This document shows, one piece after another, positions 36,001 to 39,000 of a stretch of DNA of 64,000 bases. The stretch lies in the NCBI RefSeq assembly GCF_056712565.1, contig NZ_CM160072.1. The stretch is one strand, 5' to 3'. The number at the start of each line of letters is the position of its first letter. Positions within the stretch are counted from its first letter, which is position 1. A program made the position numbers.

Positions 36001-39000
36001 TTTATAAGCCGTTAATACTTCTTCAAGTCTGGCTTCAGTAAGCTTTTCCCATGCCATTATCGGACACATTACGGTTTCATCTTCGGGGATTAACGTCACG
36101 GCACCAACGCTGTCTCGCCCTATTTCTGACAATAAATCAAACGGTTGTCTGGATTTAGCATGATAACGTTTAACGATCCGGTCACGTACAATCGGGCTAT
36201 CGGGTAACAGGTTATCGAAGAAGTTAAATACGGCATCAGAGGTGATATTCCTCCTCTGCAATGGCAGCGAAAGTGACAACGGTCTGGCATAACGGCTGGC
36301 TAACCACTCAGGTGCATACTTAAAGGTGTGCGCGCCGTTGGCTAACTTCGTTAACTCGCCTACCCGCTGGTTGTTCATCCAAGTGACTAGTTTAGGCATC
36401 ACCACTCCAGATCTTGCTGTTCTGTTGCTTCTGGCGAGGCATTTTTTGCGTCGCATAGCGTCATTGAGAGTTCAAGCGACTGTAAAATCTTAAAAAATGT
36501 CGTGAGCGAGGTATTGTTAGGATTGTTTTCGAAATTGGAAATTGTCGCCTGCTTAATGCCGATTTTTTTCGCCAACTCGCTCTGCGTCCAGCCGTTTTGC
36601 TGGCGAACCAGTTTCATTGCATTCGCCAATTGCATTGGGCTATAGATCTTCTGAAAGCTCATCATGTCATACGTCCACAGCAAATTTATCCGCTTAAGGG
36701 GATATTATCAGTTTTATCCTTTAGTGAGGATAAAGTCAATCTGGAAACACATCCTATCCGCTCTACGGGATAAACGCTGCGATATCCGCGATCGCGGATA
36801 AAAAGGAGGATTTAAAAAAGCACATCCTAATGCGGTGGCTTCTTTGACTACCGGAATCTGTAATCTTAATGACCTGGCCGCGTAAAAAACGTCTGTTCAA
36901 TGGGGTGATGCCGTGAGGCGAATTTATCAGTTTTATCTACAATTGGGGTAACGCGCTGACGGGAGTAAAAAAATGTCTGACTGGAACCCCTCTTTATATC
37001 TACACTTTGCCGCTGAACGATCGCGTCCGGCGGTGGAGCTGCTTGCCAGGGTGTCGCTGGAGAATATCGAATACATTGCCGATCTTGGCTGTGGCCCAGG
37101 TAACAGCACCGCCCTTCTACACCAACGTTGGCCTGCTGCCAGGATAACGGGCATCGACTCATCTCCGGCGATGATTGCTGAAGCGCGCAGTGCTTTGCCA
37201 GACTGCCTGTTTGTGGAAGCAGATATCCGCAACTGGCAACCGGAACAGGCACTCGATCTGATTTTTGCTAATGCCTCGCTGCAATGGCTGCCCGACCACT
37301 ACGAATTGTTTCCTCATTTGGTTTCGTTACTCAGTCCGCTGGGCGTGCTGGCAGTACAGATGCCAGATAACTGGCTGGAGCCGACCCATGTGCTCATGCG
37401 CGAAGTTGCCTGGGAACAAAACTACCCGGATCGCGGGCGTGAGCCGCTGGCTGGCGTTCATGCTTACTACGATATTCTGAGTGAAGCCGGATGTGAGGTC
37501 GATATCTGGCGAACCACTTACTATCACCAGATGCCGTCGCACCAGGCGATTATCGATTGGGTGACCGCCACTGGATTACGTCCGTGGTTACAGGATCTGA
37601 CCGAGAGCGAACAGCAGCATTTTCTTACGCGCTACCATCAGATGCTGGAAGAGCAATATCCCCTCCAGGAGAACGGACAGATATTGCTGGCATTTCCGCG
37701 TCTGTTTATTGTTGCCCGCCGTACGGAGTAATTATCACGTCAGCTGGTAATGGCGATCGGGAAGAATTTTCGCTGGAATTTCTGCTTCATCGTTCATCTG
37801 TAACAGGTCAATTTCAATAGCGTTGCAGATGGCATCCAGCGGTAAATCATTGTTTTCAGTACCGAAGGGATCTTCCAGTTCTTCCGCCAGACAATCCAGC
37901 GAAATAAAAGTGTAGGAAATCAGCACAGAGATAAAAGGCGTCATGTAATGCAGATCCACGACCAGCGCGAACGGCAGCATGATACAAAACAGATAAACGG
38001 TACGATGCAAAATCAGGGTGTAGGCAAAGGGAATTGGCGTGTAGGCAATGCGCTCGCAGCCTGCCAGAACTGCTGAAATATCATTAAGCCGATCGTTGAG
38101 GCTAATAAACAGGATATCTGAAAGCTGCCCATTGCGGCGCTGAACCGCCAACCACTCCCCCATTATTAACAAGATACGGTTAGCTGGAGAGTTCGAAGCC
38201 AGTACACGCTGAAGATCTTCCGTCTTGAGATATTGAGCCAGCACTTCCGCCTGTGGTTGTTTGCGTAATGTCATGCGTAAACAGTGAGCGAAGGCGATTT
38301 GCAGCCGGGCAAACTCCCTTACACTTGCCGAATCTGGCAATGTCGTTTTTACCTCGCGCAGTAACGACCGTGAGGCAATCATCAACTGCCCCCAAAGTTT
38401 TCGCGCTTCAACGTAACGGGCGTACCCGGCATTATTACGAAAACCAAGAAAAATGGCGATGGCGACACCGAGAATGCTGAACGGTGCGAGGGTGAATTTA
38501 ATGCCCAAATGCGTGTACCAGGGCAGCATGAAAATAACAGCGATAGAAAAGAGAAAATTGAGTAGTAAGCGCGAGGATATCTTGGATAATACTGAACCGT
38601 GCCAGACAAAAATACGGCGCAGCCAGTGTTGTTGTGGACGAACAATCATGGTTATCTTCAGGCGTGGAAAAGTCGCCCTATTAAACGTGATTACGATCAC
38701 ATTCTCAAGACGCTACTTACAAATTACCTACAAGCTTACAACATTAACAGGTGCTGCATGTGGCACCTGTTAATGATAAAGGCACATAGAATGTTGTAAC
38801 TAATATAGCGAAATAAGAAACCCGGTCGAAACCGGGTTCAGAGTATTAGCACAACGGGCGTACAGCTTCGCGCATCCCTTTTTCGAGAATCGCATCCAGG
38901 TCATTAGCAACCTGCTCGACCAGACCAGGCACTTGCGTCAGGTCCTGCTCCCAGTGGTCTTTTTCTGCCAACACAATCGCTACCAGTTCCTGGGTCCCGA

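Follow-up and report, generated by a model that had tools for sequence, protein, structure and literature searches.

Loss of the lsr operon, which serves the handling of autoinducer-2 (AI-2), is already known as a lineage-wide trait of B2 and ExPEC Escherichia coli: it has been in print since 2012-2013, and its effect on fitness was tested experimentally in 2025. Quan and Bentley (2012; PMC3420918) worked with the same neighbouring genes that frame the locus here, ydeT, yneL, hipA, hipB plus ydeK on one side and tam, yneE and uxaB on the other. Brito et al. (2013; PMC3595036) reported that numerous natural E. coli have no complete lsr operon, that luxS is kept in all of them, and that the operon is absent from most of the ExPEC strains they examined. 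From ancestral-state reconstruction they concluded that the operon is ancestral and its absences are losses, at a proportional likelihood of only 0.60, and their lsr gene tree mirrors the species tree. The same authors found that losing lsrK is enough to stop both the internalisation and the sensing of AI-2, and describe how an inactivated operon decays rapidly and stepwise. In the screen of 32,404 genomes by Keizers et al. (2025; PMC12263705), over 95% of phylogroup B2 genomes kept under 100 bp of lsr homology, and restoring lsr in the B2 strain 83972 lowered its competitive fitness.

The DNA analysed here, referred to as the window, is a 64-kb stretch (64,000 nucleotides) of contig NZ_CM160072.1 from RefSeq assembly GCF_056712565.1. 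We compared it with the corresponding locus of K-12 MG1655 (NC_000913.3 1588000-1612000, designated L001), in which the gene order is hipA-hipB-yneO-lsrK-lsrR-lsrACDBFG-tam (b1507-b1519) and 14,903 bp lie between hipB and tam. The first-pass annotation, made from the sequence alone, had proposed that a block of about 15 kb holding yneO/ydeK, lsrK, lsrR and lsrACDBFG is missing between hipB and tam, and had allowed that the K-12 order it gave might be wrong. Alignment to K-12 and tblastn searches bear out the missing block, and the K-12 order it gave is right. By blastn, window positions 35002-36820 correspond to L001 2782-4597 (hipA, hipB and 154 bp upstream of hipB), 36820-36857 to L001 10829-10866 within the lsrK coding sequence, and 36854-39000 to L001 19227-21384 (the end of lsrG, the spacer, tam and yneE). 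All three segments are collinear and on the same strand. Two K-12 intervals are missing from the window, L001 4598-10828 (6,231 bp) and L001 10867-19226 (8,360 bp), so that 14,591 bp of the K-12 region are gone. What is left follows K-12 in order, with ~96% DNA identity across hipA, hipB, the four HipB operators, the spacer between lsrG and tam, and the genes tam, yneE and uxaB.

The genes on either side of the missing block are intact. Gene calls were taken from the ORF list, from the RefSeq annotation of genomes that are 100% identical here (UTI89 among them) and from tblastn with the K-12 proteins. hipA, encoding the HipA serine/threonine kinase toxin, occupies 35077-36399 on the minus strand and specifies 440 aa with 97.7% identity to K-12 HipA over residues 1-440. 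hipB, encoding the HipB HTH antitoxin and repressor, lies at 36399-36665 on the same strand (88 aa, 94.3% identity to the K-12 protein over its full length). The two genes share base 36399 in a stop/start overlap, as expected of one operon, and with both reading frames intact they make up a complete hipBA type II toxin-antitoxin module. On the plus strand, tam (trans-aconitate 2-methyltransferase) extends from 36973 to 37731 and encodes 252 aa, 95.2% identical to K-12 Tam over its full length. Two minus-strand ORFs that run over the start of tam (36866-37252 and 36933-37232) were dismissed as mechanical ORFs that lack support.

Counted from the annotated hipB ATG (88-aa HipB, beginning MMSFQK), the hipB-tam intergenic gap spans 36666-36972 and measures 307 bp. 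The first-pass annotation was correct that the gap is short; its size of 289 bp (36684-36972) is too small, because it started from the 94-aa form of hipB in the ORF list, which is extended to a TTG at 36683. The gap consists of ~154 bp of hipBA control region, ~101 bp of lsr debris and 56 bp of tam leader. The control region (36666-36819) is collinear with L001 4444-4597 by blastn and MAFFT and differs from it at about 5 of 154 bp. A pattern search for TATCCN8GGATA located four perfect HipB operators within 36687-36800, at 36687-36704, 36715-36732, 36755-36772 and 36783-36800, against 0.07 such sites per window expected by chance, and the four sequences are identical to the K-12 operators. 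The description of the gap as largely made of these operators holds for their presence and number and fails for their share, since they span 114 of the 307 bp and a third of the gap is lsr debris that had gone unrecognised.

This debris comprises two scars. The first is a 38-bp internal remnant of lsrK at 36820-36857 on the minus strand, identical to L001 10829-10866 at 36 of 38 positions (blastn E = 5e-11); its orientation and order are as in K-12, and lsrK as annotated in other strains matches it too. Junction 1 (36819/36820) and junction 2 (36854-36857) mark its two ends. The second is the last 63 bp of lsrG, at 36854-36916 on the plus strand, identified by blastn and MAFFT, with tblastn placing LsrG residues 81-96 at 36866-36913. 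This remnant ends in the TGA stop at 36914-36916, differs from K-12 by a 1-bp deletion and a few substitutions, and matches inside the annotated lsrG of lsr-positive genomes. It is followed by the 56-bp lsrG-tam spacer, or tam leader (36917-36972, plus strand), which has one difference from K-12 in the alignment. The outer breakpoints leave the flanking control regions in place: 20 bp separate junction 1 from the end of the nearest HipB operator, and tam keeps ~120 bp of its upstream sequence. An Rfam scan of 36000-37600 at E <= 1 returned no RNA family, and the junction is unlike any known RNA gene.

Beyond the two scars, tblastn and blastn searches with the whole deleted K-12 block returned nothing from the 64-kb window. 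K-12 LsrA, LsrC, LsrD and LsrB had no tblastn match in it; lsrR and lsrF are likewise missing from the 64 kb, where lsrK is represented by the 38-bp fragment and lsrG by its last 16-20 codons. We found no IS element and no long repeat at either junction, and the microhomology is short: junction 1 has 0-1 bp (G), junction 2 has 3 bp (GAA, or GGAAT in another register). Little or no microhomology, together with the lack of an IS end or a long repeat, is a signature of illegitimate recombination.

We examined how widely this arrangement occurs among 5,426 complete E. coli genomes. With a 901-bp query, hipB and tam were contiguous in 963 of them. A 131-bp query covering both junctions matched 966 genomes at 99-100% identity, UTI89 and ATCC 11775 included, so that an identical double-junction allele is carried by about 18% of complete genomes. 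When the junctions were queried separately, junction 1 was found in 966 genomes and junction 2 in 967, and no single-junction intermediate was found among the 5,426. The K-12 lsrB-lsrF segment was present in 4,364 genomes, with 3 places on plasmids. A chimeric query that joined a 44-bp junction sequence (window 36834-36877) to lsrB-lsrF matched 5,327 genomes, which means that 963 matched through the junction only; the junction part has too little flank on either side to seed matches in lsr-positive genomes. At least 963 of the 966-967 junction genomes (at least 99.6%) therefore carry no lsrB-lsrF on any replicon, and for the up to 3-4 junction genomes outside this count, lsrB-lsrF may lie elsewhere or the 44-bp match may have been missed. 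The data show a deletion of the yneO-lsr block at this locus with scars that come from lsrK and lsrG, in an allele that is clonal and widespread. As the sole matching part of the query in 963 of the 5,426 genomes, the 44-bp junction sequence could serve as a sequence marker for the lsr-null hipB-tam allele. Carriers of the junction include UTI89, IHE3034, NU14, UM146, APEC O18 and the type strain ATCC 11775, all of which we take to be phylogroup B2 strains.

The window is 99.9-100% identical to UTI89 over nearly its full length, the exceptions being the fimbrial/IS2 region and a prophage at dif that it lacks (both described below), and positions 36400-37300 are 100% identical to UTI89 and to many ST95 genomes. 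The window is thus nearly identical to ST95-type strains such as UTI89, and from this identity we infer that the source strain probably belongs to phylogroup B2; the Clermont markers chuA, yjaA, TspE4.C2 and arpA lie outside the window. The lsr-negative B2 locus known from UTI89, IHE3034, NU14, 83972 and ATCC 11775 has the same flanking genes, the same junction sequence and under 100 bp of residual lsr, and the locus described by Quan and Bentley in 2012, by Brito et al. (2013) and by Keizers et al. (2025) shows no biological difference from that in the window. Consistent with this, the 38-bp and 63-bp scars fit the class with less than 100 bp of lsr homology in Keizers et al. (2025). The IS- and phage-associated lsr decay reported by Brito et al. 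(2013) in other E. coli and in Shigella is alike in that Lsr function is lost and luxS is retained. Those partial cases vary among themselves, are recent and often have IS elements at their flanks, whereas the allele in the window is a clean, IS-free double junction. In the portions of the three papers available to us, neither the two breakpoints nor the scars of lsrK and lsrG were found described base by base. What is added here is solely the base-level junctions and these scars, plus the lack of a single-junction intermediate among 5,426 complete genomes. The scars are direct sequence evidence for the conclusion of loss that Brito et al. (2013) drew from ancestral-state reconstruction.

Taken as a whole, we hold with high confidence that the window carries a fixed lsr-negative allele of the E. 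coli B2 lineage, which is rich in uropathogens, and that this allele arose by deletion from a K-12-like arrangement; no observation contradicts the deletion as such. The ancestor would have had the order hipA-hipB-yneO-lsrK-lsrR-lsrACDBFG-tam. Illegitimate recombination with little or no homology would then have removed 6,231 bp, that is, all of the autotransporter gene yneO and the 3' end of lsrK, and 8,360 bp, comprising the remainder of lsrK, all of lsrR and lsrACDBF, and most of lsrG. Whether as two successive deletions or as one complex event, this would have left the 38-bp lsrK island and the last 63 bp of lsrG. With the flanking control regions spared, hipBA autoregulation and tam expression could both have continued, judging from the anatomy of the locus.

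Within this deletion history, loss may have come in two successive deletions, the first taking yneO and part of lsrK, which would have inactivated the kinase and made the rest useless, and the second taking the remainder. That there are two distinct pairs of breakpoints, and that 38 bp survive between them, speaks for such a sequence, as does the rapid stepwise decay after inactivation described by Brito et al. (2013; PMC3595036), given their report that lsrK loss by itself ends AI-2 internalisation and sensing. Short islands are also left by single events, for example template switching during replication or repair, and no genome with only one junction turned up (966, 966 and 967 among 5,426 for the double junction, junction 1 and junction 2). 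Both steps would thus have to pre-date the sampled clade, or there was a single event. We put two steps at slightly short of an even chance. A more tentative extension, which we regard as possible but rather unlikely, is that the island is the record of a two-step loss in which the cell became AI-2-blind first, and that the outer breakpoints were filtered by selection for hipBA autoregulation and a tam-proximal promoter. On the left, the breakpoint would lie 20 bp past the last HipB operator because disturbed hipBA autoregulation would release the HipA toxin; on the right, a breakpoint ~120 bp upstream of tam would preserve the promoter next to tam. That closeness to dif (~1.8 kb, in the terminus region) contributed to the rearrangement is speculation.

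Deletion itself has been weighed against readings in which nothing was lost from this locus or from the genome. One is that the short hipB-tam spacing is ancestral and that the yneO-lsr block is an island inserted in non-B2 lineages. Horizontal transfer of lsr between genera has been suggested (cited within Keizers et al. 2025, PMC12263705), and in Brito et al. (2013; PMC3595036) the presence of lsr in the ancestor has a maximum-likelihood support of just 0.60. An empty insertion site would hold no internal fragments of lsrK and lsrG, whereas the window holds both, in K-12 order and orientation, which shows that the locus was lost here and not inserted elsewhere. The lsr gene tree also tracks the species tree in the analysis of Brito et al. 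(2013). The remnants effectively refute an ancestral short spacing, to which we give very little credence. Equally improbable is that lsr was relocated to another place on the chromosome or to a plasmid and that AI-2 uptake was kept. The window covers 64 kb of the genome, lsrB-lsrF matches lie on plasmids at 3 places, and the union count leaves up to 3-4 junction genomes unexplained; set against this are the 963 of 966-967 junction genomes with no lsrB-lsrF on any replicon and the whole-genome BLAST of Keizers et al. (2025; PMC12263705), in which over 95% of B2 genomes retained under 100 bp of lsr. Nothing specific speaks for an artefact of assembly or sequencing, for example a contig that was collapsed or mis-joined, and this reading is refuted to near certainty: 966 complete genomes, sequenced independently by many laboratories and from many hosts, have the same junction at 99-100% identity.

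Several other features of the window were recorded alongside the deletion. At 34971-34998 on the minus strand lies GGTGCGCATAATGTATATTATGTTAAAT, which matches the E. coli dif site exactly over 28 bp (0 mismatches, with 0 such matches expected by chance). By this match the window spans the chromosome dimer-resolution site at the replication terminus. Between the hipA stop and this site there are 79 bp, and ~1.8 kb separate the site from the lsr deletion. The corresponding UTI89 locus (L002) carries a filamentous-phage prophage of ~9.6 kb exactly at dif (L002 25413-34984), whose genes include those for a replication protein of the II/X family, a Zot-like protein, a DUF2523 protein and a GspD-like secretin; in the window (~34984-35000) the site is empty. 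Two window-UTI89 alignments overlap there by 17 bp (34984-35000), almost wholly within dif. The UTI89 prophage resembles the CUS-1 prophage of O18:K1:H7 strains.

Further from dif, an IS2-type element (IS3 family) sits within a ydeT-like fimbrial usher gene at 27352-31216. Its orfA (28780-29190) and orfB (27917-28822), both on the minus strand, split the usher gene into an N-terminal ORF of 660 aa (29234-31216) and a C-terminal fragment of 196 aa (27352-27942). The ydeP gene appears to lack its first ~324 codons, the UTI89 match stopping at 27363. UTI89 and SCU-116 show other patterns of decay in the same fimbrial cluster than the window does, and the ydeP-usher-IS2 configuration of the window was not found in the best matches examined. 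The usher gene also contains, at 29766-29783 and ~7 kb from hipBA, a fifth perfect palindrome of the HipB-operator type, TATCCTGCGACCTGGATA, a putative site that is identical in the K-12 locus (L001 2055); chance alone would give 0.07 sites of this type per window. In the position of dgcF (40524-41942, minus strand), the window and UTI89 have a gene for a 472-aa sensor diguanylate cyclase, while K-12 DgcF is annotated as 315 aa (948 bp); the K-12 copy may be N-terminally shortened, or its start may be annotated differently. RefSeq annotates gene remnants in UTI89, which is collinear and 99.97% identical, at positions corresponding to window ~8811-8975 (a truncated, dosC-like diguanylate-cyclase gene by dosP), 45878-45979 (a yneK fragment) and 59463-59671 (fragments of ydeI and of a 2-oxo-tetronate isomerase gene). 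These small remnants suggest several further lineage-specific deletions in the terminus-proximal region.

The deletion also changes the setting of tam. In K-12, lsrG is followed after 56 bp by tam, which has the same orientation and closes the lsrACDBFG gene row, whereas in the window the upstream operon is lost and tam is limited to whatever promoter the retained ~120 bp holds. With that operon gone, tam must use a proximal promoter. A -10-like CTACAAT at 36937-36943, picked by eye, is a candidate. A consensus promoter and terminator scan of 36400-37100 gave no sigma-70-like site and one terminator-like hairpin, inside hipB, and its results were no better than those from shuffled sequence. 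In lsr-negative 83972, induction of tam as cells enter stationary phase persists (Keizers et al. 2025, PMC12263705).

For AI-2, the gene content predicts a cell without the LsrACDB transporter, the LsrK kinase, the LsrR repressor and the LsrFG processing enzymes. Extracellular AI-2 would not be trapped, sensed or depleted, with some Lsr-independent entry: following the known Lsr circuit, a cell that lacks LsrK would make no phospho-AI-2, so that the signal would be neither trapped nor answered and AI-2 would stay outside. The first-pass annotation had gone further and concluded that the strain would lack AI-2 import. That conclusion fits Lsr-mediated import, along with phosphorylation, sensing and degradation, but is too broad for import as a whole, as 83972 takes up external AI-2 independently of LsrACDB, with LsrK supplied on a reporter plasmid (Keizers et al. 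2025, PMC12263705). The phenotype would be more aptly worded as the lack of import, trapping, sensing and degradation of AI-2 by way of Lsr. Provided that it has luxS, as essentially all E. coli do, the strain would be a 'signal-blind emitter'. Overall, these results place the window in the lsr-negative B2 lineage for the purposes of annotation, predict an AI-2 emitter that would be unable to quench or sense AI-2 through Lsr, and caution against transferring K-12 AI-2 physiology, or quorum-quenching ideas based on lsr, to such strains.
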